Part shown: in pieces, positions 16,661-63,197 of the stretch | How positions within the stretch are numbered: position 1 is the first letter of the stretch | Layout of the letters: each line of letters starts with the position of its first letter | IMG/VR virus record: IMGVR_UViG_3300018878_000133 | Span: 1 to 64,000 of that record | Length of the DNA: 64,000 nucleotides | Reading direction: 5' to 3' (one strand) | From: a virus | Taxonomy: Duplodnaviria > Heunggongvirae > Uroviricota > Caudoviricetes | Notes under the pieces: model-generated | Told to the model about the DNA's origin: nothing | The model's database searches: none | Seen by the model: the letters and a program-made list of their open reading frames with translations, nothing else | Made by a program: the position numbers and the translations under genes

Positions 16661-18952
16661 ATGGCTGATGTAAAGAAATTACAAACTAGAATTGCTCTTA
16701 AGTATGATACTTATGATCACTGGCATGACGAGTCTAAGACTGACCTAGGAGCAAATCTCGTACTTTTAAAAGGTGAGCTCGGTATCTGTGCTATAGAAAA
16801 TAAGAGTGAAGGCGCGCAGACCGCTCCTACAACACTTTTTAAAATTGGTGATGGTACTACCCCTTTTAAGGATCTAAAATGGGCTTCCTCCCTCGCAGCT
16901 GATGTTTATAGTTGGGCTAAGGCTGCAAAGATTGACCGCTCTGGTAAAGTTCTTCGCTTCTTAGATGCTAAAGATAATATTATCGAGTCAGTTACCTTTG
17001 ATTATTATACTGAAGCAGATGTGAAGGCTATTACAAATGGTTTAGATTCCAGAATCGTTGCACTCGAAGGCAAATTCGATGGTGAAGATTCTGTTCAGGG
17101 TCAGATTGATGCTCTTGATGAACGTCTTGAAACCGCTGAAGGCACTATTACAAACCTAGGTAATGATAAACTCGATAAGAGTGTTTATAATGCTTACATC
17201 GCAGGTAAGGCAATGTCTGATGATGAGCTAAAGAGCTATGCAGACGGAAAAGCAAATGCTGCTCAGACTGCGGCCGAAGCAACTGCTGCTGGTGCGTTAG
17301 CTACTGCTAAGTCTGCACTTGAAGCTGCTGACTCTGCTCTTGGTGGTCGTATCGACGCTCTCGTAGGTAACAATGGTACTATTGCTACTGGCGACGCAGC
17401 GACTCTTGAGGCAGCTAAGGCTGATGCTGCTTCTAAGGCTAGTGCTGCAGAGTCTGCTGCAAAGTCTCACGCAGAGACTAAGGCTTCTGAAGCACAGGCT
17501 GCCGCTGAAGCGACTGCTGCTAGTGCACTTTCTAGCGCTGTTAATACTTTAAATACAAAAGATGCAGAGCTCGTTGCTGAGGATACCAGACTTGCTGGTC
17601 TTATCTCTAATAATGCTAATGCTATTGTAACTGAAAAGAGCGACAGAGAGACTGCTATCACTAATGTAACTGATGCTTATACTTCTGCTATTGCAACTGC
17701 TAAGGGTGAAGCTATTGAGGCCGCTAAAGGTGAGACTACCTCTCAGGTAAATGCTCTTGCAGAAACTGTTGCGGCAAATACTAAGGCTATTACTGATAAC
17801 AATTCAGCTGTTACTGCTGAGATTACTAGAGTTGAAGGTCTTGTAACTACTGAAAAGGGTCGTGCTGAAGCGGCTGAAGCAGCTCTTGACGAGCGTCTTG
17901 ATAAAGTTGAAGCATTCTTTGATCCAAAAGATGCTGAAGGTAACTCTGTTACTATTGACAAAGCTCTTGACACTTTAGTAGAGATTCAAAAATATATCAC
18001 TGATGATGACACCGCCGCCGGCAAAATGGTAGAGGATATTGCAGCCAATGCTGATGCTATCGAAGCACTTAGTGACCGTATGGATACAGCAGAGGATGAC
18101 ATTGATGCTCTTGAAGGTCGTGCAACCGCAGTTGAAGGCCGTGCAACTACTCTCGAAGGCAAAGTTGGTAGTCTTGAAACGCTAACTGCAGGTTTTGATG
18201 GTACTATTAAGGCTGCTGTAGAAGCTGCAGCTGCAAAGGGCCAGACTGGTATCGATAATGCTGCTCTTGCGCAGGCTGCAGCGGATGCTGCTCAGGATGA
18301 CGTTGATGCACTTGAAGACGTTGTTGATGGCGTAAAAACAACTGCTGAAGGGGCAGCTGCTGGCGTAACTGCTCTTGAAGGTCGTATGACTACAGCTGAG
18401 GGCAAGATCACTGCTCTTGAGACAGAGTCTGCAAAGCATGCTCTAAAGACAGATGTTGAGACCGAGCTTGGTAAGAAAGTTGACAAAGCTACTTACGAAA
18501 CAGATAAGAATGCCACAGAGCAGGCTCTTGGTAACGTTTATACTAAGACAGAAGCTGATGGTAAGTTTGGGCTAAAGACTGTTGTTGAGAAGAACGCATC
18601 CGATATTGCTGCTAATACTGGTAAAATTGGTGAGAATACTACAGCTATCGCTACCGAGAAATCTAGAGCTGAAGGTCAGGAGGCTGCTATTCGTAGTGAA
18701 TTTGCTGCTGCTGATACTCAGATTAACGCTAGAATCGATACAGCTGTAAATACTACAATTCCTGCTGCAGAGGCTGCTGCTAAAAAACATGCTGATGATC
18801 AGGTAAAAGCTCTTAAGGAAAATGAAGTTGCTGATAACACTGCTGCTATTTCTGCTGTAGATGGTCGTGTTACTGCCCTTGAGGATAGATTTGGTGGTTG
18901 GTTCATAATTGACTGCGGCACTGCTGATACTGTAATAGACGAAACAAAGTAA
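16661..18952 (+). CDS. fibre protein with N-terminal fibre motif and Ala-rich coiled-coil shaft
   Basis: 'IALKYDTYDHWHDESKTDLGANLVLLKGELGI...LFKIGDGTTPFKDLKW', then ~600 aa of Ala-rich heptad-like sequence. Confidence 0.65.
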   Translation: MADVKKLQTRIALKYDTYDHWHDESKTDLGANLVLLKGELGICAIENKSEGAQTAPTTLFKIGDGTTPFKDLKWASSLAADVYSWAKAAKIDRSGKVLRFLDAKDNIIESVTFDYYTEADVKAITNGLDSRIVALEGKFDGEDSVQGQIDALDERLETAEGTITNLGNDKLDKSVYNAYIAGKAMSDDELKSYADGKANAAQTAAEATAAGALATAKSALEAADSALGGRIDALVGNNGTIATGDAATLEAAKADAASKASAAESAAKSHAETKASEAQAAAEATAASALSSAVNTLNTKDAELVAEDTRLAGLISNNANAIVTEKSDRETAITNVTDAYTSAIATAKGEAIEAAKGETTSQVNALAETVAANTKAITDNNSAVTAEITRVEGLVTTEKGRAEAAEAALDERLDKVEAFFDPKDAEGNSVTIDKALDTLVEIQKYITDDDTAAGKMVEDIAANADAIEALSDRMDTAEDDIDALEGRATAVEGRATTLEGKVGSLETLTAGFDGTIKAAVEAAAAKGQTGIDNAALAQAAADAAQDDVDALEDVVDGVKTTAEGAAAGVTALEGRMTTAEGKITALETESAKHALKTDVETELGKKVDKATYETDKNATEQALGNVYTKTEADGKFGLKTVVEKNASDIAANTGKIGENTTAIATEKSRAEGQEAAIRSEFAAADTQINARIDTAVNTTIPAAEAAAKKHADDQVKALKENEVADNTAAISAVDGRVTALEDRFGGWFIIDCGTADTVIDETK

Positions 18953-44906: not shown

Positions 44907-45090
44907 AATAACTGAAAAATTTATCGTATAATAAATTAAAAAATAATAAAAGTATATTATATATAATAATATAATTAATTATTATAATATATTTATAATA
45001 TATTTTTTATTTGCACAGCAAAATTTTTTAGTTATTGTTGTGCAAAATTTAAAACTTAATACTGTATAATATGATGTAATTAATTTAGAG

Positions 45091-45113
45091 CCAATACTTA
45101 TTTCTTAATGCTG
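45091..45113 (+). repeat. repeat family 'TAGAGCCAAT(A/G)CTTATTTCTTA' copy 1
   Basis: Other copies at 45163-45184, 47378-47399 and 48438-48458; copies 1 and 4 are followed ~30-35 nt later by TTGGCCTTTAT. Confidence 0.55.
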
Positions 45114-45162
45114 GTATAACAGGATACATAAAAGTAGTGTAGTTTGGCCTTTATTATTTATT

Positions 45163-45184
45163 GAGTCTATGCTTATTTCTTACT
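45163..45184 (+). repeat. repeat family copy 2 (TGAGTCTATGCTTATTTCTTA)
   Basis: Near-identical 15-nt core ATGCTTATTTCTTA. Confidence 0.5.
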
Positions 45185-45354
45185 ATCAAGCCATATATTT
45201 TTGATTAACAGAAGCTAGACCAAAATGTACGAGCACAACATTTAAAGAAACTGTACTTATTTCTAAACAATTTTATGGGAAAATTATTTAGTCAGTTCTA
45301 AATATTGTGCTCGTTTTAATTTAAATAATAATAAAAATTAAGGAGAATAGTATT

Positions 45355-47352
45355 ATGCAAATTAACGAAACTTTGAAGTCTATTTTAAGAACTCGTCATT
45401 ATTTAGTTATTGATGATAGTGATTTGGCTACAAATAATTCAGCTTATTTAAACGCATATTTGTTAGCTAATTTCGGTATTATTGTAGATAAGCCTAGTTT
45501 TCTTACTAAGACTATGGTTAATCAGATTGACGAGGAATTTCATTTGAATGTTCCTAAGTCTTTTTATGAGAATCCTCAGGATACTAAATATTTTACTTGT
45601 GAAGAGCTTTTGATTGAGCAGATTGTTTCTTATTTTGCATATGGCTCGGACCTTGGTAGAATTGAAATTTTTAAGAAAGATCTTCCTGAATATGTTGTAG
45701 GTGATGAGCTTAAACTTAGAACCTTCTATATTATAAATAATGAAGAAGCTCGTAAAACTCTATACGATATTACGGATGCTTATTGTGCTTACACTCGTCC
45801 GTTTTCGTGTGATGAATTAGCTGAATTTCTTACTTTGTTTACTAATGGTTTTTATGATGGGTCAGAGGAAATTAAGTGTAAAGACAATGTTTTTGCGCTC
45901 CTTCCTACAGATAAAAGATTTGCTAGATTCTTAGATAAAAAAGATATTGTAAAGCTTTCTGTTCAAAGATTTGGAGATAAAGCACAATTCAAGAATTGCA
46001 AAAAGAATCCTTATGCTTGGAAAGAATTACAGATGCATTTCAGTGAAATTGCTTCTTATATTCCTTATGTAAAACATTGTCCTATGTCTAAGAAACAGGC
46101 AAAGTATTTTAATAAAATCGTTTCTCTTGGCAACCTAAAATTACCCAAAGAAACTAATGTGCAGTCCCCTGATAGAGCGGCTCTTAAAATGCTTTCCGAT
46201 GGTGATATTGTTGCTGCGGCTGATATTTATGCTTCTAATGGTTCTATGTTAGAACGTCGCATTAAGATGCTTCTTTCAAGAGCAAATCCTCAGGAAGCTG
46301 TTGAAATTCTTAATATGATTCCTGCATCTAATCCTGTAGTTCTTTATCAGCTTCTTGCAACTCTTTCAGCAGATGATACTGAAGCAAGAACCTTTACTTA
46401 CTTCCATAATAATAAAGTAAAAACTCACAAGGAAACTGACTATGAAGCTAAATGGCGAAAGTCTAGACTTAACGAAAATACACGTAAGTTCCTTGCTTCT
46501 GTTTGTCTTGATAAGATTAAAGAATATTACAAGTCTTTGCCTTCTCTTGGTAAGATTTATGTAGCTGATAATTTCTATAAGTTAGGTATGCCTACTAATA
46601 CTTCTGCTAGCGGTAAGGGTATTGATGTACTTCCTATTGGAAGCCGTATACCTTGTACTGGAAATAATATTAGAACTTTTGTACATTGGAAGAAAGCTTT
46701 TGATATTGATTCTTCTCTTATCGTTGTAGATAAAGATGATAATTTGTCTACTATGGGCTGGTTCAATTATGGTGCAAAATCTTTTGGAAATGATATCCTG
46801 TTCTCCGGTGATATTACTGGTCCTAATGGTGCAGAGTACTTTGATATTAACCTCGACTCTCTTGCCAAAAAAGGTTATAAGTATGTAGTTCAGACTTTCC
46901 ATGGTTACTGCAGTGAACTTAACAGTGGTGAGATTTATGCTGGTTACCAGAATAAAGAAAATCTTAATACTAAAGCTTGGGATCCTAAGAACATTGAGAT
47001 GCAGTTTAAGGTTTATGGTGATTCTCGTGCTTGCGTAGCTTTTGCTATTGACATTCAGAATCGAGAAGTAGTCATTCTTAATCAGATTCTTGACAGTGAT
47101 GATAGAGTAATTAGACCTGAAGGTTTTAAGACTATCGAAAAATACTTACAGGCTAATTATCTTGACGTTAATATTGGTATGATTGCCGAGTGTCGTGGCG
47201 AGCTTGCGGATAATCCTATGGATGCAAACGTTGTATTTGATGATACTTATGCTCCAGTCATTTCTGAAGACTCTGATGATATCGACCCTGTAAAGCAGAC
47301 CATTATCAGAAGTTATGAATTAGAAAAATTAGTAGCTTTTGTTAATAATTAA
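45355..47352 (+). CDS. hypothetical 665-aa protein
   Basis: Long ORF with RBS AAGGAG; no family recognised by eye. First gene after the AT-rich region and immediately upstream of the tRNA island. Confidence 0.5.
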   Translation: MQINETLKSILRTRHYLVIDDSDLATNNSAYLNAYLLANFGIIVDKPSFLTKTMVNQIDEEFHLNVPKSFYENPQDTKYFTCEELLIEQIVSYFAYGSDLGRIEIFKKDLPEYVVGDELKLRTFYIINNEEARKTLYDITDAYCAYTRPFSCDELAEFLTLFTNGFYDGSEEIKCKDNVFALLPTDKRFARFLDKKDIVKLSVQRFGDKAQFKNCKKNPYAWKELQMHFSEIASYIPYVKHCPMSKKQAKYFNKIVSLGNLKLPKETNVQSPDRAALKMLSDGDIVAAADIYASNGSMLERRIKMLLSRANPQEAVEILNMIPASNPVVLYQLLATLSADDTEARTFTYFHNNKVKTHKETDYEAKWRKSRLNENTRKFLASVCLDKIKEYYKSLPSLGKIYVADNFYKLGMPTNTSASGKGIDVLPIGSRIPCTGNNIRTFVHWKKAFDIDSSLIVVDKDDNLSTMGWFNYGAKSFGNDILFSGDITGPNGAEYFDINLDSLAKKGYKYVVQTFHGYCSELNSGEIYAGYQNKENLNTKAWDPKNIEMQFKVYGDSRACVAFAIDIQNREVVILNQILDSDDRVIRPEGFKTIEKYLQANYLDVNIGMIAECRGELADNPMDANVVFDDTYAPVISEDSDDIDPVKQTIIRSYELEKLVAFVNN

Positions 47353-47377
47353 TATATTTTATTGTAATATATTTATA

Positions 47378-47399
47378 GAGACTATGCTTATTTCTTAAC
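47378..47399 (+). repeat. repeat family copy 3 (TAGAGACTATGCTTATTTCTTA)
   Basis: Same core motif, directly upstream of the permuted tRNA-like element. Confidence 0.5.
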
Positions 47400-47408
47400 G
47401 CCTTTTAA

Positions 47409-47480
47409 GCGGGTGGTCGTTGGTTCGAATCCAACCATTTCATCTGTTAGGTGAAATGTAGCTCAGCGGTAGAGCACCTT
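47409..47480 (+). ncRNA. permuted tRNA-like element (T-arm + 3' acceptor strand joined by a 5-nt loop to 5' acceptor strand + D-arm)
   Basis: 'GTTGG-TTCGAAT-CCAAC CATTTCATC tgtta GGTGAAATG TAGC-TCAGCGGTA-GAGC'. GGTGAAA pairs with TTTCATC (one G-U) across a closing loop; no anticodon arm. Confidence 0.4.
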
Positions 47481-47569
47481 TTAGCTAGTCCAAATATTTT
47501 TAATAATTTATTAAATTATTAATTTAATAAGTGCTAAATTTATAAAGAACACATTGTATAATAAAATAC

Positions 47570-48230
47570 GTTAGGTGCCACGAAGCGTTGGTTTAGGCTG
47601 TGATTTAAGGTCAACGCCTAACTCTAGCGAAGAAGCAGCAGTGGTAAATGGAGTGTGATGAACAGCCTTAAATTGGTTTGTAAGTGTTGAAAACCTTTCA
47701 ATGAGATAAGTAATGCTTATGAGATTGATAAAAAACTTAAAAAAATAAATTCGGTTGAACTCCGATATGTCTATGAGGATGCACTGTGGAATAGATGATT
47801 AGTTGGATGCTCCGTAAGGGTCATTACAAGGTCATTTCCTCATAGATGAACCGCCCGCAGGCCATTAACTAGCATAGGCCGTTCCGTTTTATTATTGGCG
47901 GATGATTAAGGACAGTAGGGACAACTTCGCCTGCCGAGAGAATGAAGCTCGCTCAGGTAAAAGCCATAAGCTATCTGGTAACAGAACGTGGAATTAATGA
48001 TGAGAGATAAGTTGTCAGATAATCAGTGGGAAAGATTATCATTTATTCCGTAGTGAGTATAAAGCCATATTAGAATACGCTACAACGTACAACTTTGGAA
48101 ACGGACGCCTGTACAGCGTGACCCAAAGGTAGCAGAGTTTAGGCATAATAGTTTAATGGTAGAACACGGCCGAGTGTTGGGCTGGGTGGCGGTTCAATTC
48201 CGAATGTTGCCGACCAAAAAGAAAAACTCT
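47570..48230 (+). ncRNA. ORF-free GC-elevated structured segment (candidate large ncRNA/intron-like element)
   Basis: ~660 nt with no ORF >=60 aa in any frame. TGTATAAT promoter at 47565; long-range inverted repeats (GCGTTG...CAACGC; TCTATGAGGA...TCCTCATAGA); contains a tRNA-like 5' half (GGCATAATAGTTTAATGGTAGAAC) near its end. Confidence 0.35.
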
Positions 48231-48437
48231 TAAAAGTATTTAGATATGAAAAAGCAAGGTAAACGAATTAGATGCTGGTCACAAGAGTTAATGATAGAAG
48301 AAAGACCGTTGGAAGTGGTTGCAAACGCGAAGCCAACCCTTGCTCCTAAAGGTGAGAGTCCTTTAGCGGAAAAAATATTTTTAAAATTTTTTTAAAACAC
48401 TATAAATTTTAAGTAATTAGATTGTATAATATAACGC

Positions 48438-48458
48438 ATAGAGCCAATGCTTATTTCT
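48438..48458 (+). repeat. repeat family copy 4 (TAGAGCCAATGCTTATTTCT)
   Basis: Preceded by TTGTATAAT (48422-48430) and followed by TTGGCCTTTAT. Confidence 0.5.
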
Positions 48459-48505
48459 GCTGAATAGCGATCATCTTTTAAATGAATTTAGCTTGGCCTT
48501 TATAT

Positions 48506-48644
48506 GCGGGATTGGCGGAATAGGCAGACGCAAGGGACTTGCTTGATGACATAGTGTCTATCTAGTAGGGGCAGTACCTACATCAAGTACCAAAAATCCC
48601 TCGGTAGTGATACCGTATCGGTTCAAGTCCGATATCCCGCACCA
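48506..48644 (+). tRNA. tRNA-Leu-like gene with ~52-nt insertion in the anticodon loop
   Basis: Acceptor GCGGGAT/ATCCCGC + ACCA; Leu-type D-arm TGGCGGAATAGGCAGACGC; long variable hairpin CGGTAGTGATACCG; T-arm ATCGG-TTCAAGT-CCGAT. Anticodon stem AGGGA/TCCCT encloses 59 nt, including a 7-bp hairpin CTTGATG...CATCAAG. Confidence 0.5.
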
Positions 48645-48727
48645 GACCTTTATGTTTTTCAGTTTCTGTTGAATGGGTTAAATAGAAACGACCGTTTTGC
48701 TAGTTTTAAGTGCATAAACTAGTTTAT

Positions 48728-48804
48728 GGACCATTAGCTCAGTTGGTTAGAGCTCCCGGCTCATAACCGGTCGGTCCTAGGTTCGAGTCCTAGATGGTCC
48801 ACCA
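48728..48804 (+). tRNA. tRNA-Met (anticodon CAT)
   Basis: GGACCAT-TA-GCTC-AGTTGGTTA-GAGC...CTCATAA...CTAGG-TTCGAGT-CCTAG-ATGGTCC-A-CCA; clean cloverleaf. Confidence 0.85.
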
Positions 48805-48965: not shown

Positions 48966-49117
48966 GGCGCGTTGGTCAAGCGGTTAAGACACCGCCCTTT
49001 CGTTAGATTAGCCAAAAGGTAAGGCAGGCCACTAGAGATAGAGGTTATGTGTCAGTTCGAGTCTGACATCTAGCACCAACGGCGGTATCACGGGTTCGAT
49101 TCCCGTACGCGTCACCA
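48966..49117 (+). tRNA. tRNA-Glu-like gene (anticodon-loop CTTTC..AC) interrupted by a 77-nt tRNA-shaped insertion
   Basis: Outer gene GGCGCGT-TG-GTCAAGCGGTTAAGAC-A-CCGCC-[..]-GGCGG-TATCA-CGGGT-TCGATTC-CCGTA-CGCGTCA-CCA. Insert 49012-49088 has its own acceptor GTTAGAT/ATCTAGC, D-arm GCC-AAAAGGTAA-GGC, T-arm GTCAG-TTCGAGT-CTGAC and terminal ACCA. Confidence 0.5.
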
Positions 49118-52812: not shown

Positions 52813-52910
52813 CACGATATAGCTTATGTGGTAAAGCATCCGAATCCCAGGAAAAAGACCAAGATTGATTTCTTGAAGATAAGTAGGTTCAAGTCCTGCT
52901 GTCGTGTCCA
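52813..52910 (+). ncRNA. over-long tRNA-like element (~97 nt) without a canonical anticodon arm
   Basis: Acceptor CACGATA/TGTCGTG + T-CCA, D-arm GCTT-ATGTGGT-AAGC, T-arm GTAGG-TTCAAGT-CCTGC. The 44-nt central region forms CAAGA-TTGATT-TCTTG instead of a 5+7+5 anticodon arm. Confidence 0.35.
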
Positions 52911-53240
52911 AGAGGTTGAGCCCCTCTGTACAAGGCTACCACGTGTTCCTACGAAAGTGGAGAGTTTTGAAAGTGATTTATCTATAAAACTTTCCCCCTT
53001 ATAGTTCTTACTGCTTGTTCATCTAAGTTTGGGGTCAATAACTTAATCTAAAGTGTAAGTAGCGGAATTAATTTACTTCCGAAAATAGGATAAGGAAACC
53101 GGTCCTGTAAATTAATTTTTTAGATGAGTATACAAGAAGTCAAAGTAAGGGACCGTAATCTCTACTGATTAACCTTAGTATACATGTGGGTTATACAGTT
53201 TCGTTGGTGCAACTCCAACCTCATCTGTTTTATTTTATAT

Positions 53241-55062: not shown

Positions 55063-55630
55063 GAGGAGCCAGGTGGGTTTCGTAGAGTTACCGTTGAATA
55101 ACTATGTGCTTGTCGTTTTAAGAAACGAGTGGGTATAAAGCCCCACAAATATCAAATAGTAAGGGCACATGCGAGCTATGAAACCAGAAGTTAAGTAGTG
55201 AAGGAAGCATGGGTGTGGCTGGTTACCGCTTTATCAAAAATCATAGTGTTAACTATGTGAGGTAAAGATGTCTATGTGGTGATATCTACTGTGAACTGTT
55301 GTGCGAGTTCACCTATTTGATAGGGCTGGTTGAAAGACCCTGGTCCATCGAGTAAGGGAACATATCCCTTAACAAAATCCTTAATGGTCATTGTGCTGAC
55401 AATGTGGTAATCTGAAACATAGAATTTTGGTGTAAAGACTAAAATGTTTGGGCAAACGATAAATGCTCCCAAATTTGCTTATTAAGGAATAAGATAGTTG
55501 GCAGACAACGATAAAATCAGTTATAGCCTGTACCCTTGAGAAACTCGTATCAGGTAATTTATATTACTGTGGATAAGCAGGCAAGTAGTGAAATAAAAGG
55601 GTAAGAGAATAAACTACATTATAAAATATA
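55063..55630 (+). ncRNA. ORF-free GC-elevated segment (candidate structured RNA)
   Basis: ~570 nt between tRNA-Asn and tRNA-Met-like. No plus-strand ORF >=60 aa; only a 66-aa minus-strand ORF of doubtful reality. Many G/C-rich local hairpins (e.g. GGGTATAAAGCCCCAC). Confidence 0.3.
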
Positions 55631-56168: not shown

Positions 56169-56313
56169 GGCTCCGTAGTTCAGATGGTTAGAACGCCTGC
56201 CTGTGCTTTATTAGTTTAATAGTAAAACACTCTTATAAAGAGATGCTAGTGCAAGACTAGTATAAGGCTCCACACGCAGGAGGTCGTCGGTTCGATCCCG
56301 ATCGGAGTCGCCA
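56169..56313 (+). tRNA. tRNA (anticodon-loop remnants CTGTG..AC or CT..CACAC: His/Val-like) interrupted by a 68-nt tRNA-shaped insertion
   Basis: Outer gene GGCTCCG-TA-GTTC-AGATGGTTA-GAAC-G-CCTGC-[75-nt loop]-GCAGG-AGGTC-GTCGG-TTCGATC-CCGAT-CGGAGTC-G-CCA. Insert carries acceptor-like CTTTAT/ATAAGG, D-arm-like GTTT-AATAGTA-AAAC and T-arm-like CTAGT-GCAAG-ACTAG. Confidence 0.5.
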
Positions 56314-56665: not shown

Positions 56666-56705
56666 CCTAGTTAGTAATGCAGCTGCTACTAAGTTACTAA
56701 CTAGG
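56666..56705 (+). promoter_or_regulatory. large imperfect palindrome overlapping RBS/start region of the GIY-YIG gene
   Basis: CCTAGTTAGTAA-tGCAGCTGCtactaag-TTACTAACTAGG; 12-bp perfect arms around the palindromic GCAGCTGC core. Confidence 0.5.
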
Positions 56706-56713
56706 TGATTCTT

Positions 56714-57385
56714 ATGGCTTATATTTATAAAATTACAAATAATCTTAATGGCAAGGCTTACATAGGTCAAACACTTTATTCATTAGAAAAAAGGTTTGCA
56801 GAGCATTTAAAAGACAGCGCTAGAACTGGTCACAGTAAAAGACCTCTGTACAAAGCTATGTTAAAGTATGGTTATTCAGCTTTTACTATAGAAGTTGTTG
56901 AAGAACTAGCTGATGATCCAGAGCTTTTAAATGACCGAGAAATTTATTGGATTACGAAATTTCATACTTTTTGTAAAGATCCGCTTGGTCCTGGTTATAA
57001 CGCTACTTTGGGTGGCGGAAGCAAGATGCTTTATGATAGACGCGCGATTATTCAGTATTTACGTAATAATAATTGTGTTAAGGATGCTGCAGAAGTTTTT
57101 AAGTGCACAAAAGACACAATTATCGATATTGCTAAAGCTGCTAATATTCAAGTTAAGTCTAGCCCGGATTTAGTAAAAGAGCTTTATAGTAAACCAATAA
57201 ATATTTATGATTTAAAAAATAATTTAATTCATAGTGTTACTAATTCTTATGAAGCTGAGCAGTGGATTCGAGATAGTGGTATTTCTGATGCTAAAGGCGG
57301 CGCAATTAGAGCTCACATTCTAGAGGTTTGCAAAGGTAAACGAAAAACTGCTTATGGCTTTATATGGAGATACTTGAAAGATTAA
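56714..57385 (+). CDS. GIY-YIG homing endonuclease (free-standing, seg-like)
   Basis: 'YIYKITNNLNGKAYIGQT...RFAEH' GIY-YIG catalytic motif at the N-terminus and a basic C-terminal DNA-binding region. Track ORF starts at GTG 56705; the ATG at 56714 is preferred. Confidence 0.8.
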   Translation: MAYIYKITNNLNGKAYIGQTLYSLEKRFAEHLKDSARTGHSKRPLYKAMLKYGYSAFTIEVVEELADDPELLNDREIYWITKFHTFCKDPLGPGYNATLGGGSKMLYDRRAIIQYLRNNNCVKDAAEVFKCTKDTIIDIAKAANIQVKSSPDLVKELYSKPINIYDLKNNLIHSVTNSYEAEQWIRDSGISDAKGGAIRAHILEVCKGKRKTAYGFIWRYLKD

Positions 57386-57750: not shown

Positions 57751-58450
57751 AATATCAACAATTTGTACCTTGAAAGATAAATATAATTACTAACTCAGTG
57801 CTAAACACAAGACACGCTTCTTGTGCTGAGAATGCAACTAAGCGAAAGCTGAACAATGTGTGATGGTAACATAAGAGGGATACCTCGGAAACCGCGCTAC
57901 TTATATATGCGAGTATATGAGTTAAGGGTAGGACCCGAAACATATGTTGTATGTGCTGATGTTATAGCAAGTAATGGTAGGAAGAGTCTCGTGAGAGTAA
58001 TAGAAAGCTTGGTTAATAGCTGAGCCGAATCCAAGTTAGGGTTTAGTTGGTGACTGTATTACACCTTGGAAATGCCAATAATCTCATTTGTCGTGAACCA
58101 TAGAAATGTGGGTATAAGAGATTCAAGTAACCTCCTAGTAGCCGAAGACAATTAACAAAGAATTAATGCTAGTATATAATTAGGAATACTGATATTAATT
58201 TTTTCTGAATAGACGGTGAGGGGTGCAGGTAATCAATCCTGTCATAGTTTATGTAGTCCAGGGCTTGGCCGTTAACCAAGTACCCAGATTTCGTGGCAAG
58301 AAGTTAGGGGTCGCTCCCCGAAGCTCAGACTTGTCATCTATGTGACCGAATGTACTTGAATATAACAAGTGGTAAGGCGAAGGCCTAGGAATGTATTATA
58401 TTTATCTTTGAATGTATAAGGTGTACCTCCTTTGTTTATTTTGCAAGGAT
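57751..58450 (+). ncRNA. candidate long non-coding RNA (promoter-to-terminator unit without ORF)
   Basis: ~700 nt, GC noticeably higher than flanking DNA, bounded by the TTGTATAAT promoter and a strong intrinsic terminator. No plus-strand ORF >=60 aa. Confidence 0.35.
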
Positions 58451-58492: not shown

Positions 58493-58579
58493 TTTATTGT
58501 ATGATATTATAGTAAAAGTTTATGATCAAGTAATGATGAATTGGAATATCTTTATCGATTATGTATGGGAGAATTTAAA

Positions 58580-59131
58580 ATGAAAAAACCATTAGTTGTT
58601 AATTTAACAGGAGCTCCAGGTGCTGGAAAAAGCACTGGTGCAGCAACTATTTTTGCAGAGCTTAAAAAAGCTGGTGTTAATGCAGAACTTGTAACAGAAT
58701 TTGCTAAAGATAAGACCTGGGAGCATAATATTATGGCTCTAGGTTGTCAAGAATATGTGTTTGGTAAACAGTCTTATAGATTACGTAGATGCCGAGATGA
58801 TGTCGATGTGATTGTGACTGATAGCCCGCTTCCTCTTAGTATTATTTATAATACTAATCCTGCAATAACTGAGTCTTATCCAAGGTTAGTCATGGATGTT
58901 TATAATACATATGAAAATATTAATTTCTTTATTAACAGAGTTAAACCTTACAACCCTAAAGGCCGAAATCAGACAGAAGAAGAAAGTGATCGTATAAGTG
59001 TCCGCATTAAAGATTTATATAAAGGTCTTGGTATTGATTATTTTGAAATTAACGGCGATAATGAAGGTTATGACTATGCAGTTAAGACTGTATTAAGCAT
59101 ACTAGCAGGAGGTATAAAATATGAGTACTAA
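58580..59131 (+). CDS. P-loop NTPase (NadR/AAA_28-like kinase fold)
   Basis: Walker A 'LTGAPGAGKSTGAA'; Walker-B-like 'VDVIVTDSPL'; RBS GGGAGAA 7 nt upstream of the ATG at 58580. The track ORF begins earlier at 58541. Confidence 0.55.
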   Translation: MKKPLVVNLTGAPGAGKSTGAATIFAELKKAGVNAELVTEFAKDKTWEHNIMALGCQEYVFGKQSYRLRRCRDDVDVIVTDSPLPLSIIYNTNPAITESYPRLVMDVYNTYENINFFINRVKPYNPKGRNQTEEESDRISVRIKDLYKGLGIDYFEINGDNEGYDYAVKTVLSILAGGIKYEY

Positions 59132-59975
59132 AGATGCACTTGGTGATAGAATGAAAGAATTCTATGAAAATAGGAGTAAACATTATCTACCTAGACGAGT
59201 TCCTGTAATCATTAGACTTGACGGCAAAGCTTTCCACACCTTCACTAAAGGTCTTAAGAGGCCTTATGACGAGATTTTCCACAATACTATGAATGCGACT
59301 ATGAAGTATCTCTGTGAGAATATCCAGGGTTGTAAGCTTGGTTATACACAGTCAGACGAAATCACTCTTCTTCTCACAGACTATGACACTCTTGATACCG
59401 ATGCTTGGTTTGGTTATAATGTGCAGAAAATGTGCAGCGTGTCAGCAAGCATGGCAACAATGGTTTTCAATAAGTATCTTAGAGAATTAATTGATAATTA
59501 TTTACAGTCTGATGTATGGGTAAACCATTATTGGGAAGAAGATGTTGAGAAATATGCTAATACATTAAAGAAGGCTATTGACAATGGTGCAATGTTTGAT
59601 TCTCGCTGTTTTAACATTCCTAAAGAAGAAGTTACCAACTGCTTCATCTGGCGTCAGCAGGATGCTACTCGCAACGCAATTCAGATGCTTGGTCAGTGCA
59701 ACTTCTCTCATAAGGAACTACACGGTAAGTCTTGCAATGACATTCAAGATATGTTAATGACTCAGAGAGGTATCAATTTTAATGATATGCCTACTGAGTT
59801 TAAACGTGGTGTCTGCTGTAATCGTGTAGAAAAAGAAGATATTTGTATTGATTTTAAAACAAAAGAAGAGACTCGCTGTATGAGAAGTGAATGGGTAATC
59901 GATAAAGAAATTCCCATTTTTACTCAAGATAGATACTACATTGAACGGTGGGTTTACTCAGAAGGAGATAAATAA
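59121..59975 (+). CDS. Thg1-like protein (tRNA-His guanylyltransferase / 3'-5' nucleotidyltransferase family)
   Basis: 'VPVIIRLDGKAFHTFTKGL..PYDE.F...M' and 'GYTQSDEITLLL' match the Thg1 palm-domain signatures (V.RIDG..FH.F...F.KP.D; GESDEYSF). Confidence 0.7.
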   Translation: MSTKDALGDRMKEFYENRSKHYLPRRVPVIIRLDGKAFHTFTKGLKRPYDEIFHNTMNATMKYLCENIQGCKLGYTQSDEITLLLTDYDTLDTDAWFGYNVQKMCSVSASMATMVFNKYLRELIDNYLQSDVWVNHYWEEDVEKYANTLKKAIDNGAMFDSRCFNIPKEEVTNCFIWRQQDATRNAIQMLGQCNFSHKELHGKSCNDIQDMLMTQRGINFNDMPTEFKRGVCCNRVEKEDICIDFKTKEETRCMRSEWVIDKEIPIFTQDRYYIERWVYSEGDK

Positions 59976-60767
59976 ATGCCTAAGCTTTTTGTTGTTTCTG
60001 ATATTCACAGTTTCTTAGAACCACTTAAAAATGCTTTAGACAGAGCAGGTTTTGACCCTAATAACGAAGAACACTGGCTGATTTCGTGCGGCGATTGCTT
60101 TGATAGGGGTCCTAATAGTATTGAATTGTTGCACTATTTAATGTCGCTTGAGCGAAAGATTCTAGTAAAAGGTAATCATGACCTACTTTTTGACGATCTT
60201 TGCGCAAGATGTTTTCCATATAGCCACGATAAGTCTAATGGCACTGTAAGAACTGTTCAAGACCTCGGTGGAAGTCCTCTTCCGGCGGATTTTGCTAAGT
60301 GCTGTGATACAGCTTTGAATAAAACGGCAGCGTATCGCGACCTACTTGTAAACTATTTTGAAACTGAAAAGTATATTTTTGTTCATAGTTGGATTCCTAC
60401 TATTACTCATTATGATAAAGGTGCTAGTAAGCCTTGGCACCAGGTTGGAAAATACTACGAATACAATGAGAACTGGCGTAATGCTTCCGAGGTAGAGTGG
60501 GAAGAAGCTATGTGGGGTAATCCTTTCTGGAAAGCACAAGACGGTATGAACAAAACCGGTAAGACAATCGTATTCGGACATTGGCATTGTTCTTTAGGTC
60601 ATTTATGCGATAGTCAAGGTGAGCTATCAGAGTTTGGTGATGATGCCAAGTGGGATCCGTACTTTAACGAATCTCAAGGAATCATCGGCATTGATCGCTG
60701 TACTGCACATACTGGTGAAGTTAACGTACTAGTTTTAGATGATAATTTTATTGGAGGCGATAATTAA
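59976..60767 (+). CDS. calcineurin-like metallophosphoesterase
   Basis: 'VVSDIHS', 'CGDCFDRGPNS', 'VKGNHDLLF', 'GHWH' match MPP motifs I-V (DxH, GDxxDRG, GNHD/E, GH). Confidence 0.75.
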   Translation: MPKLFVVSDIHSFLEPLKNALDRAGFDPNNEEHWLISCGDCFDRGPNSIELLHYLMSLERKILVKGNHDLLFDDLCARCFPYSHDKSNGTVRTVQDLGGSPLPADFAKCCDTALNKTAAYRDLLVNYFETEKYIFVHSWIPTITHYDKGASKPWHQVGKYYEYNENWRNASEVEWEEAMWGNPFWKAQDGMNKTGKTIVFGHWHCSLGHLCDSQGELSEFGDDAKWDPYFNESQGIIGIDRCTAHTGEVNVLVLDDNFIGGDN

Positions 60768-62245: not shown

Positions 62246-62410
62246 ATGAAAAAGGAAGCATCTATTGATAGAAGAATGTTTAAAAAATCACCTGAAGAAC
62301 TTGAACTCTACATGTATTTCAAAAAACGTGGCTTCAAGCTTGAGAACAAAAAGGGAAAGGGCTCTTATGAGCGCCGTCCTAAGCATATTTGGAGGTTTTT
62401 AAATGACTGA
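62246..62410 (+). CDS. small basic protein (54 aa), translationally coupled to downstream NTase
   Basis: RBS TTGGAGG 7 nt upstream; stop TGA overlaps the next ATG (ATGACTGA). Confidence 0.4.
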   Translation: MKKEASIDRRMFKKSPEELELYMYFKKRGFKLENKKGKGSYERRPKHIWRFLND

Positions 62411-63197
62411 AAGAGAACTTAAGATTTGTGAAAGACTAAAGCACGATTATAATTATGTGAAAAATCAAGGATATGAAGTTTTTGGCATATTTTTGCAAGG
62501 CTCACAGAATTATCAGTTGGATTATGAAGGCAGTGATATCGATACAAAGTGCATTGTTCTGCCTTCCGCTGAAGACCTTATTTTAAATAAGCAGCCTACA
62601 AGTACTACTCTTATATTAGAAGACAATTCACACATTGATTTAAAAGATATTAGACTTATGTGGCAATGTTTTAAGAAGCAGAACGTAAACTACCTTGAGA
62701 TTTTATTTACTGAGTTCTTTTACGTACCGCGCGACTACTTTTATTTTTGGCTCGAGATGCTTAGAATTAATGAGGATATCGCACACATTGATAATTATGC
62801 TGCTGTAAATTGTATCGTCGGTATGATCTTAGAGAAGAACGCTGCTTTGTGTCATCCTTATCCTACGTTAAAAGACAAGATTGATAAGTATGGATATGAT
62901 AATAAACAGCTTCACCATATTATTAGATGTAGAGAATTTCTTGACAGATACATTGATGGTGTATTATACAAAGATTGTCTAATTCCATACGACCGTGAAT
63001 ACTTAATTAGTGTAAAAGCTAATTATAGATATGATTTAGATCAAGCAAAAGCTATTGCAAAAGAAGCTGTTGACTATGCTAAAGCTAGAAAGCAGGCTTA
63101 TATAGATACTAATGAACGTAAGGTAGCTGAAGATACTTGTAACAGAATGGACTGTATTTTAGTAGATATCCTAACTAAATACTGGACGGAGAATTAA
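62403..63197 (+). CDS. Pol-beta-superfamily nucleotidyltransferase with helical C-terminal domain
   Basis: 'FGIFLQGSQNYQLDYEGSDIDTKCIV' matches the GS-x(9-13)-[DE]h[DE]h NTase active-site signature. Confidence 0.6.
   Translation: MTERELKICERLKHDYNYVKNQGYEVFGIFLQGSQNYQLDYEGSDIDTKCIVLPSAEDLILNKQPTSTTLILEDNSHIDLKDIRLMWQCFKKQNVNYLEILFTEFFYVPRDYFYFWLEMLRINEDIAHIDNYAAVNCIVGMILEKNAALCHPYPTLKDKIDKYGYDNKQLHHIIRCREFLDRYIDGVLYKDCLIPYDREYLISVKANYRYDLDQAKAIAKEAVDYAKARKQAYIDTNERKVAEDTCNRMDCILVDILTKYWTEN

Follow-up and report, generated by a model that had tools for sequence, protein, structure and literature searches.

Y RNAs that carry a tRNA-like module have so far been linked to a single protein, Ro60, and the purpose of the tRNA mimic is unclear. 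A circularly permuted tRNA-like element in a virus of the class Caudoviricetes raises the question of what kind of RNA it is and which protein it accompanies. The element lies on the + strand at positions 47380–47490 of a 64,000-nt stretch (positions 1–64,000 of IMG/VR record IMGVR_UViG_3300018878_000133; hereafter the window), which is part of an uncultivated jumbo phage genome of ~220 kb. It begins 28 nt past the stop codon of an open reading frame (ORF) at 45355–47352 on the same strand. We report that the element is one copy of a modular RNA cassette that co-occurs with the ~660-aa protein encoded by this ORF, and we favor, with a probability of about one half, a Y-RNA-like ribonucleoprotein (RNP) with a partner other than Ro60, possibly tied to tRNA handling.

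From 5' to 3', the RNA is composed of stem P1, the motif UUAUUUCU, a mini-hairpin, stem P2, a variable region (V), a T arm, an acceptor-like (AS) hairpin, U8A9, a D arm, P2', and P1'. The 5' strand of P1 (47380–47387; GACTA, a bulged T, and GC) pairs with 47484–47490 and is followed by the hallmark single-stranded motif UUAUUUCU (47388–47395), which is near-invariant across copies and is the presumed recognition site. The mini-hairpin GC-CUUUUAA-GC (47400–47410) displays a 7-nt anticodon-loop-like loop, which reads CUNNNAA in most copies. The 5' strand of P2 (GGG, 47411–47413) pairs with CCT (47477–47479), closing a four-way junction at the top of the "anticodon stem". The variable-loop equivalent TGGTC, with C48 at 47418, and the T arm together occupy 47414–47435, the T arm GTTGG-TTCGAAT-CCAAC itself spanning 47419–47435. 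The AS hairpin CATTTCATC/TGTTA/GGTGAAATG (47436–47458; 9 bp with a 5-nt loop) directly abuts the T stem with zero gap and is coaxial with it. U8 and A9 (TA, 47459–47460) lead into the D arm GCTC-AGCGGTA-GAGC (47461–47475), which carries A14, G15, G18, G19, and A21 and is followed by A26, the part from U8 to A26 spanning 47459–47476. The 3' strand of P2 (CCT), a U-rich joiner (TTTA), and the 3' strand of P1 (GC-TAGTC) complete the RNA (47477–47490). Pair 3:70 is A:U, i.e. there is no G3:U70. The minimum free energy (MFE) fold recovers P1, the T arm, the AS hairpin, and the D arm. A preliminary description made from the DNA letters had proposed the order T arm, 3' acceptor strand, tgtta connector, 5' acceptor strand, and D arm, and the bases were confirmed at those positions; its view of a closed acceptor stem with an open anticodon side was borne out by the fold conserved in homologues. 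The D arm was present, but its proposed register (TAGC...GAGC) was off by two bases, and the proposed extent (47409–47480) covered the core but not the whole of a larger unit closed by P1.

The sequence at 47380–47490 almost certainly encodes a real, conserved tRNA-like RNA. The element was found at the same site, just past the ORF stop codon, in most related phages (contigs of ORF homologues). For comparative analysis, the structure was supplied by hand and the copies were then re-aligned with a covariance model; a MAFFT alignment (A1) misplaced the AS stem, and RNAalifold on A1 returned the T arm, D arm, and P2 only. The covariance model built from 16 tRNA-like copies (R1) scored these copies at 86–136 bits, including 127 bits for the window copy, and the next best match in 288 kb was a tandem tRNA junction at 45 bits. 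Across 25 distinct copies, 97.5% of the cells were standard pairs, and 26 of the 29 pairs showed compensatory double changes. None of 500 shuffled controls reached the observed pairing and covariation values, and sliding the partners by 1–3 columns lowered pairing to 28–41%. P1 was 100% paired with double changes in 6 of 7 pairs, the T stem 100% paired with 4 of 5 pairs covarying, the D stem 99% paired, the AS stem 95.5% paired with all 8 modelled pairs covarying, and the two pairs of the mini-hairpin 89% paired, both covarying. All three P2 pairs covaried (CGG/CCG, CAG/CUG, CGU/ACG, UGC/GCA, and UUU/AAA). A 5-bp anticodon-arm-like 5' hairpin (CGCCU/GGGUG), which the MFE fold prefers in place of P2, was rejected, with only 37/75 pairs formed across the family versus 68/75 for P2.

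The sequences of the T stem and AS hairpin were wholly different between loci, with pairing always retained. The AS loop was 3–8 nt long in most copies and variable in sequence; one copy (L015a) carries 31 nt of extra stem and loop. The T loop read UUCGA(A/G/U)U in 21 of 25 copies, UA at positions 8 and 9 was present in 24, A14 in all 25, and G18G19 was retained. The 15:48 Levitt pair was G:C in 23 copies and A:U in 2, and covariation at this pair was the feature used for YrlA, the tRNA-like class of bacterial Y RNA, by Chen et al. 2014 (PMC4201824). Seven of the 25 copies carried N73-CCA right after the 7-nt 3' acceptor strand, joined within 1–4 nt to position −1/+1; the window copy is not one of these and has U-CUG at this site.

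The tRNA-like domain is housed in a scaffold that also exists without it. Repeat analysis and a pairing-aware scan defined a cassette with the pattern (A/U)GA, 5 nt, bulged U, RC, UUAUUUCU, insert, A, GY, 5 complementary nt, and C, of which 84 distinct examples were collected from related phages, with inserts of 12–116 nt. P1 has 7 bp, one bulged base after pair 5 (absent in a minority), and a C–G closing pair; UUAUUUC(U) stands immediately 3' of its 5' strand and an A precedes its 3' strand, a layout into which window positions 47380–47395 and 47483–47490 fit. P1 was paired in every one of the 84 cassettes, in forms as different as GCCAA/UUGGC, GUCUA/UAGAC, AACUG/CAGUU, GACCA/UGGUC, and GCCCG/CGGGC, and its sixth pair alternated between G–C and A–U. 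The motif UUAUUUCU, on which this census was seeded, was kept in all 84 cassettes and also in the leaders of Firmicute metagenome-assembled genomes (MAGs); drifted forms were CUUACUUC in Rhodococcus phage Weasels2 and CAUMCUUCU in Rhodobacter phage RcXuper and Ruegeria phage RpAliso.

The window contains five cassettes, of which only that at 47380–47490 is tRNA-like, and the motif ATGCTTATTTCT occurs in it exactly three times. Three tandem cassettes without a tRNA-like insert (45090–45148, 45165–45220, and 45249–45297, + strand; R1 scores 29.6–32.3 bits) sit between a TGTATAAT box (45064–45071) and the start codon of the ORF at 45355, and an equivalent trio occupies the corresponding site in most of the related phage loci for which upstream sequence was present. 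A fifth cassette (48443–48497, + strand; 32.2 bits) has a short insert and its own TGTATAAT box and ends 8 nt before the tRNA at 48506–48641, with orthologues in L001, L011, L015, L017, and L019. At the site orthologous to the tRNA-like copy, L012, L014, and L021 carry a short or different insert, and L005 and L019 carry no cassette. The tRNA-like domain is thus one of several unrelated inserts carried by a common, modular P1/UUAUUUCU scaffold.

No Rfam 15 family for the generic cassette emerged when the L040 leader, the L024 array, window 47000–48800, and the whole window were scanned permissively; these scans gave only sub-threshold YrlA matches, all on tRNA-like copies. A literature search recovered work on phage Ro60 and Y RNAs and nothing on the cassette scaffold or the ~660-aa protein, with a prior description still possible; searches on phage permuted tRNA, SCO0854/MXAN_6230, and TerD with RNA motifs returned nothing relevant. 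The cassette is thus an RNA motif new to Rfam 15, and its tRNA-like form combines a Y-RNA-like tRNA mimic with a different handle and a different protein.

To examine the linkage of cassettes to this protein, a pairing-aware census was made of 50 loci encoding homologues. At least one same-strand cassette was found within 400 nt upstream of the ORF in most of these loci. The few exceptions had cassettes just downstream or further upstream, or lacked upstream sequence, and background matches, on the opposite strand or inside the ORF, were rare. In 27 distant loci (37–53% protein identity) from another phage, a mobile element, and Firmicute MAGs, all R1 matches at E<0.01 were on the ORF strand and flanked the ORF, nearly all within ~1 kb and the furthest at 1.2–2 kb; nine were tRNA-like. 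In the reverse test, a search of IMG/VR with the RNA motif alone yielded 35 loci. Twenty-two contained a full cassette, and 14 of these had the ORF on the same strand, mostly adjacent, while the ORF was found at none of the 13 loci without P1 pairing, a number close to that expected by chance.

The association extends to cultured phages, in which the homologues are very distant. Weasels2 carries four cassettes in an unannotated 389-nt gap after its homologue gp266, the third of them tRNA-like (R1, 64.8 bits), and RcXuper and RpAliso each carry four cassettes before the homologue, one or two of them tRNA-like. In RcXuper and RpAliso the homologue is followed by a gene for a tRNA nucleotidyltransferase, XacN1 has a nucleotidyltransferase gene nearby, and in L023 a kinase-phosphoesterase-Rnl1 fusion adjoins the ORF homologue. 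The association of cassettes with the ~660-aa protein is thus shared by jumbo phages and other mobile elements, by the genomes of Firmicutes, and by phages that infect Rhodococcus, Rhodobacter, or Ruegeria, and the cassette RNA is very probably coupled functionally to the protein.

The cassette-linked protein and candidate RNA partner (45355–47352, + strand; 665 aa) was predicted by AlphaFold2 (mean predicted local distance difference test score 87, predicted template modelling score 0.87) to have a helical N-terminal domain and a beta-rich, TerD-like C-terminal domain. It gave no Pfam match, and the function of its PHROG family is not known. The family is large, with 1203 homologous clusters at 50% identity and hundreds of close homologues of the window ORF. 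A partial, sub-threshold match (E 1e-24) was obtained to the NCBIfam "MXAN_6230/SCO0854 family RING domain-containing protein", to which the family is distantly related. Searching the family profile against PDB sequences returned nothing, and Foldseek of the full model against the PDB gave nothing significant. The suggestion in the preliminary description that the ORF be compared with TROVE, the domain of Ro60, led to a negative answer: no TROVE match was found among 58 family members, hhalign against full-length human RO60 (confirmed as PDB chain 9nen_A) gave a probability of 0.13%, and the TROVE combination of a HEAT-repeat ring and a vWA domain was not present in the ORF product. Nor did the 21 largest ORFs of the window, which comprise every ORF of at least 300 aa, include a TROVE gene, for which the preliminary description had proposed a search.

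The likeness of this RNA to YrlA (Rfam RF02553) is extensive. Both are built, in the same order, of a closing stem, a V region, a T arm, a closed acceptor-like stem-loop, a D arm, and the returning closing stem; in both, the 15:48 pair covaries and the T and D loops hardly vary. The gene of each adjoins, on the same strand, a gene for a large protein that contains a helical-repeat domain, each has sibling RNAs in which the protein-side module is retained without the tRNA mimic (as YrlB relates to YrlA), and both are found in phages with tRNA and RNA-repair genes. The two differ in that the cassette lacks the CGAA motif, having AGAG-GACUA-U-GC-UUAUUUCU as its 5' module in all copies, and in that no Ro60/TROVE gene, which for YrlA lies within ~4 kb, was found among the 21 largest window ORFs, the neighboring ORF being non-TROVE. 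With a partner other than Ro60, the system would be an analogue of the Ro60–YrlA system, not a member of it.

On these grounds we propose that the RNA would work as Y RNAs do, with one module holding the protein and a variable apical module acting as an exchangeable effector. The P1/UUAUUUCU module would be the putative binding site of the ~660-aa protein, and for a direct RNP of the two, judged from sequence, the odds appear to us to be even. The tRNA mimic, comprising the elbow and acceptor, might present the particle to RNase P, the CCA-adding enzyme, TruB-type modifiers, and exonucleases, or might instead compete with tRNAs for RNase P, the CCA-adding enzyme, modifiers, and exonucleases; a presenting or competing role has been proposed for YrlA/Ro60 (PMC4201824, PMC12135203). 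Such a specific tethering or decoy role is speculative here, and we hold it to be less likely than not. The role of the particle may lie in tRNA/RNA maintenance during infection, as suggested by the nearby tRNA arrays and genes of Thg1-like, kinase/phosphoesterase, RNA ligase, and CCA-adding type. More broadly, we tentatively consider, at slightly less than even odds, that the cassettes and protein form an uncatalogued RNP system, analogous to Ro60–Y RNA and either independent of it or diverged beyond recognition, which may act in tRNA/RNA surveillance, repair, or defence against host attack on tRNA. The range of the system so conceived would take in Firmicutes of the gut and rumen as well as phages that infect Firmicutes, Actinobacteria, and Alphaproteobacteria.

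Several points weigh against a Y-RNA-like RNP. The protein–RNA binding that we infer comes from co-occurrence alone. The ~660-aa protein has no recognised RNA-binding domain, and known TerD domains are Ca2+-binding modules. The tRNA-like copy is absent in some related phages (L005 and L019), which makes the module dispensable. The search for Ro60 covered the 21 largest ORFs of the 64-kb window, and a Ro60 gene is possible in the other ~156 kb of the genome. A canonical terminator was not found for the phage RNA, and in the MAGs the single cassette lies inside a terminator-like hairpin between promoter and ORF, where a purely cis-acting attenuator fits equally well.

This last point leads to the alternative that survives best, although we consider it unlikely: the cassette may be a cis-acting leader (attenuator or riboswitch), in which a terminator hairpin before the ~660-aa gene sets read-through in response to the protein or a ligand, and of which the phage copies, the tRNA-like one included, would be derived variants. 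As in self-binding leaders such as those of ribosomal-protein genes and in terminator riboswitches, the Firmicute cassette stands between promoter and start codon and forms a hairpin with a U run. The order in the MAG loci is a TTGACA/TATAAT promoter, GUAAGUAC-GAGA-[cassette]-CGGU-GUACUUAC-UUUUUUU (6–8 U in the run), 30–120 nt, and a Shine-Dalgarno (SD) sequence with ATG, so that P0 and P1 enclose UUAUUUC and the insert, and no second promoter is visible. The L040 leader folds as one long hairpin followed by U's (z=−3.4), and in most loci the start codon has a cassette no further than 400 nt away. The leader RNA gave no Rfam family match. The MAG stem P0 (GUAAGUAC...GUACUUAC) with its U run would also give the transcript paired ends, as in Y RNAs, so that the layout may represent either a separate small RNA, its ends paired and its 3' tail made of U's, or a gene-leader attenuator. 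Pairing of UUAUUUCU to the ribosome-binding region of the ORF was considered and rejected, being inconsistent between loci.

The phage copies, however, do not behave as such leaders do: they stand alone, downstream or remote, in arrays, and with large functional-looking inserts. Cassettes occur downstream of the ORF (window 47380, L026, L036, and Weasels2), 1–1.5 kb away before tRNA genes (window 48443; L015 7153/7231), and in additional tandem arrays remote from the ORF in the same genome (L070 versus L055). Phage copies also have their own promoter-like boxes. The box of the tRNA-like copy, TGTAATAT (TG plus a −10 hexamer; 47363–47370, + strand), lies 7–10 nt upstream of the conserved AGAG at the putative RNA start; it was recognised by eye in the sequence and was not listed by a strict −35/−10 scan. 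Boxes of the TGTATAAT type also precede the orthologous cassettes in L001, L010, and L013, as well as window cassettes 45090 and 48443. Nor does a simple attenuator have any use for an insert of 75 nt that is tRNA-shaped and keeps its tertiary pairs. If the cassette were an autoregulatory site, the protein would bind the RNA too, which makes the leader and RNP readings compatible.

An explanation that we hold to be improbable is that the mimic is a processing signal without a role of its own, at which cleavage by RNase P or RNase Z would set the 3' end of the upstream mRNA or free neighboring RNAs, in the manner of mitochondrial tRNA punctuation or MALAT1 mascRNA. The position of the element just past the ORF stop codon, at the head of a tRNA and non-coding RNA (ncRNA) region, agrees with this idea, as do the N73-CCA in the AS loop of 7 of 25 copies and the cleavage of Mycobacterium smegmatis YrlA by RNase P (PMC4201824). 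The acceptor end, however, is closed by a loop that is variable in length and sequence, and the domain sits inside a conserved P1/UUAUUUCU scaffold that also exists without the mimic. A processing signal is further disfavored because the tRNA-like cassette keeps no fixed place with respect to the ORF and its mRNA, being found upstream of the ORF or among other cassettes in L024, L038, L044, L048, and RcXuper.

Marginally less probable still is an ordinary YrlA-type Y RNA serving a canonical Ro60 (TROVE) protein whose gene would lie in the host or in another part of the ~220-kb genome, of which 64 kb was inspected. YrlA was the sole non-tRNA family, among 4227 Rfam families, to match the region (47391–47510; 39 bits, E=1.3e-6 in a local scan and 4.7e-5 for the whole window), with no other site in the window, and its model also matched the copies in L001, L003, L024, and RcXuper; phage-encoded Ro60/Y RNA pairs occur in mycobacteriophages, CcrColossus, phage G, and Thermus phage phiLo (PMC4201824, PMC12135203). 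The covariance-model check thus singled out the expected family, but the score fell well below the gathering score of 69, as did those of the related copies (26–41 bits). These matches came from the tRNA-like core alone, the columns of the Ro60-binding stem being unpaired or deleted. GNCGAAN0-1G, the CGAA motif situated close to YrlA's 5' end and the presumed Ro60 contact (PMC4201824, PMC12135203), was not found, the scaffold is common to dozens of non-tRNA-like cassettes, and the YrlA genes described in the literature share a strand with Ro60 and are no more than 4 kb from it (PMC4201824), whereas the cassette shows no TROVE gene among the largest window ORFs and is linked to another protein across phyla. 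The preliminary likening to YrlA therefore holds for the tRNA-like topology and the Levitt covariation, but fails for the CGAA motif, the 69-bit score, and a TROVE neighbor. YrlA RNAs are also characterized by Ro60 binding, RNase P cleavage, CCA addition, pseudouridine-55, and dihydrouridine modification.

Two other permuted RNAs resemble the element. Two-piece transfer-messenger RNA (tmRNA; alpha_tmRNA, tmRNA_permuted) shares the T arm, the 3' acceptor strand (with CCA in some copies), the loop, the 5' acceptor strand, and the lack of an anticodon arm, but has a reduced D loop in place of the full D arm seen here. The element also has no G3:U70, and an RNA of ~110 nt is too small for a tag-peptide frame or pseudoknots. 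No tmRNA was detected in the window by ARAGORN or Rfam. Separately, RcXuper (L086) has at 1386–1802 an unannotated two-piece (permuted) alphaproteobacterial tmRNA gene (106–108 bits), ~50 nt upstream of its tRNA-like cassette and protein homologue.

Permuted tRNA genes, known from Cyanidioschyzon merolae, other algae, and some archaea, retain a complete anticodon arm and mature via a circular intermediate and a splicing endonuclease. They share with the element a 3' half encoded first and acceptor strands that are complementary across a short linker; here, by contrast, no anticodon arm is reconstituted, P2 being a 3–5 bp stub that runs into P1 with no anticodon loop, and the open end is a conserved protein-type module common to non-tRNA RNAs. 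That the element is a permuted tRNA gene matured to tRNA, or an inert, decaying remnant of two tandem tRNAs, can be dismissed almost outright despite the order of its halves, the repeats CCTTTTAAGC and CCTTTTAGC that flank the window copy, and an N73-CCA near +1 in 7 of 25 copies as at a tandem tRNA junction, because the missing anticodon arm excludes the former and covariation the latter, 25 diverged copies having kept every helix by compensatory change, and because one scaffold carries unrelated inserts and neither ARAGORN nor the Rfam tRNA model called a tRNA at the element (the latter giving only a weak overlap at 47363–47443, 20.4 bits, E 0.38).

The duplicated and deleted tRNA that the preliminary description offered as an alternative is thereby refuted as the present identity of the element; an origin by capture of the junction between two tandem tRNA copies is plausible. 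The direct repeats cited in its favor, CCTTTTAAGC (47401–10) and CCTTTTAGC (47477–85), do exist, but they are not kept in relatives (L007 has GCTTTGGGAGC versus ACCGTTTTTTAGC at these sites). We judge them incidental because they are unconserved, and reject them as duplication scars; they reflect conserved flanks that vary in other phages. A second copy that had been suggested at 53196–53230 also did not stand: the hairpin there (53203–53219) carries UGCAACU in place of a T loop and was matched by neither R1 nor YrlA, and L001 has a different hairpin at the corresponding place. This hairpin (GTTGG-UGCAACU-CCAAC, within 53196–53240) stands immediately before tRNA-Tyr, as does AAGG-UGCAAAU-CCUU at ~18500 in L001. 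It ends an ORF-free stretch of ~320 nt (52910–53230), is unrelated to the cassette family, and could form the 3' terminus of a further structured RNA.

The genomic setting of the locus is that of a large phage with an extensive RNA region. The exact product of ORF 45355–47352 is present on 13 contigs, the longest of 220,378 bp. The window contains tail and lysis genes, including one for an SLH-domain endolysin, which indicates a Firmicute-type host. Searches of the locus by blastn against GenBank phages gave no match, IMG/VR scans seeded by the protein or by the flank pattern found nothing, and PADLOC returned no defence-system match.

Beyond 47.4 kb, a long, nearly ORF-free tract holds ~20 tRNA genes together with a DUF3800-XI RNA (55322–55368; 40 bits) inside the tRNA array and a full-length ROOL RNA (57770–58406; 286 bits) at its end, which has a counterpart at the equivalent relative position in L001. 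Just past this region lie an operon-like set encoding an AAA_28 NTPase, a Thg1-like 3'-5' polymerase, and a calcineurin-like phosphoesterase (Metallophos) (58541–60767), and a nucleotidyltransferase gene (PHROG 388; 62403–63197). The set looks like a tRNA-end repair toolkit, and it recurs in L019. GIY-YIG and HNH homing-endonuclease genes are dotted through the tRNA/ncRNA region (window 56705–57385; L005 9172–11467; L021 4543–7728), which suggests that phages actively shuffle this region among themselves.

Some tRNA-model matches contain insertions of ~25–135 nt (window 48506–48641, 48966–49114, 52813–52907, and 56169–56310; L001 19588–19793 and 20314–20455). In the tRNA at 48506–48641, the insert is in the anticodon loop, is 56 nt long, follows CUU, and has its own hairpin. 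These inserts look like introns, are too short for group I introns, and the tRNAs bearing them were not called by ARAGORN. An ORF-free tract of ~570 nt (window ~47570–48140), which lies behind its own TGTATAAT box and starts with GUUAGGUGCCACGAAGC, had no Rfam family match and is a candidate large structured RNA. Its GGUGCCACGAAGC start is kept at the equivalent site in L001, L007, L008, and L011, reads GGUGCCACGAUG in L005, and is repeated in L018 at ~18395–18590. Directly after the tract is a weak, sub-threshold tRNA-model match (48142–48212; 24.8 bits), which may represent a degenerate tRNA, unless the tract RNA has its 3' end here in tRNA-like form. Upstream of the tandem cassettes, contigs L005, L006, and L021 end ~140–160 nt before cassette 1, at a site corresponding to window 44930–45010. 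Independent assemblies of related phages of ~180–215 kb thus break at the same extremely AT-rich tract, which may mark a genome end or a coverage gap.

If the Y-RNA-like RNP that we favor is correct, a second protein family, unrelated to Ro60 by the tests run, would have its own modular RNAs with a permuted tRNA mimic. The combination of a protein handle and a tRNA decoy would then be a recurrent design, and what the mimic recruits could be studied independently of Ro60. Weasels2, RcXuper, and RpAliso are in culture and carry the system, which makes it directly testable. For a large unannotated protein family, the cassette RNA provides, as its candidate partner, a first functional lead.

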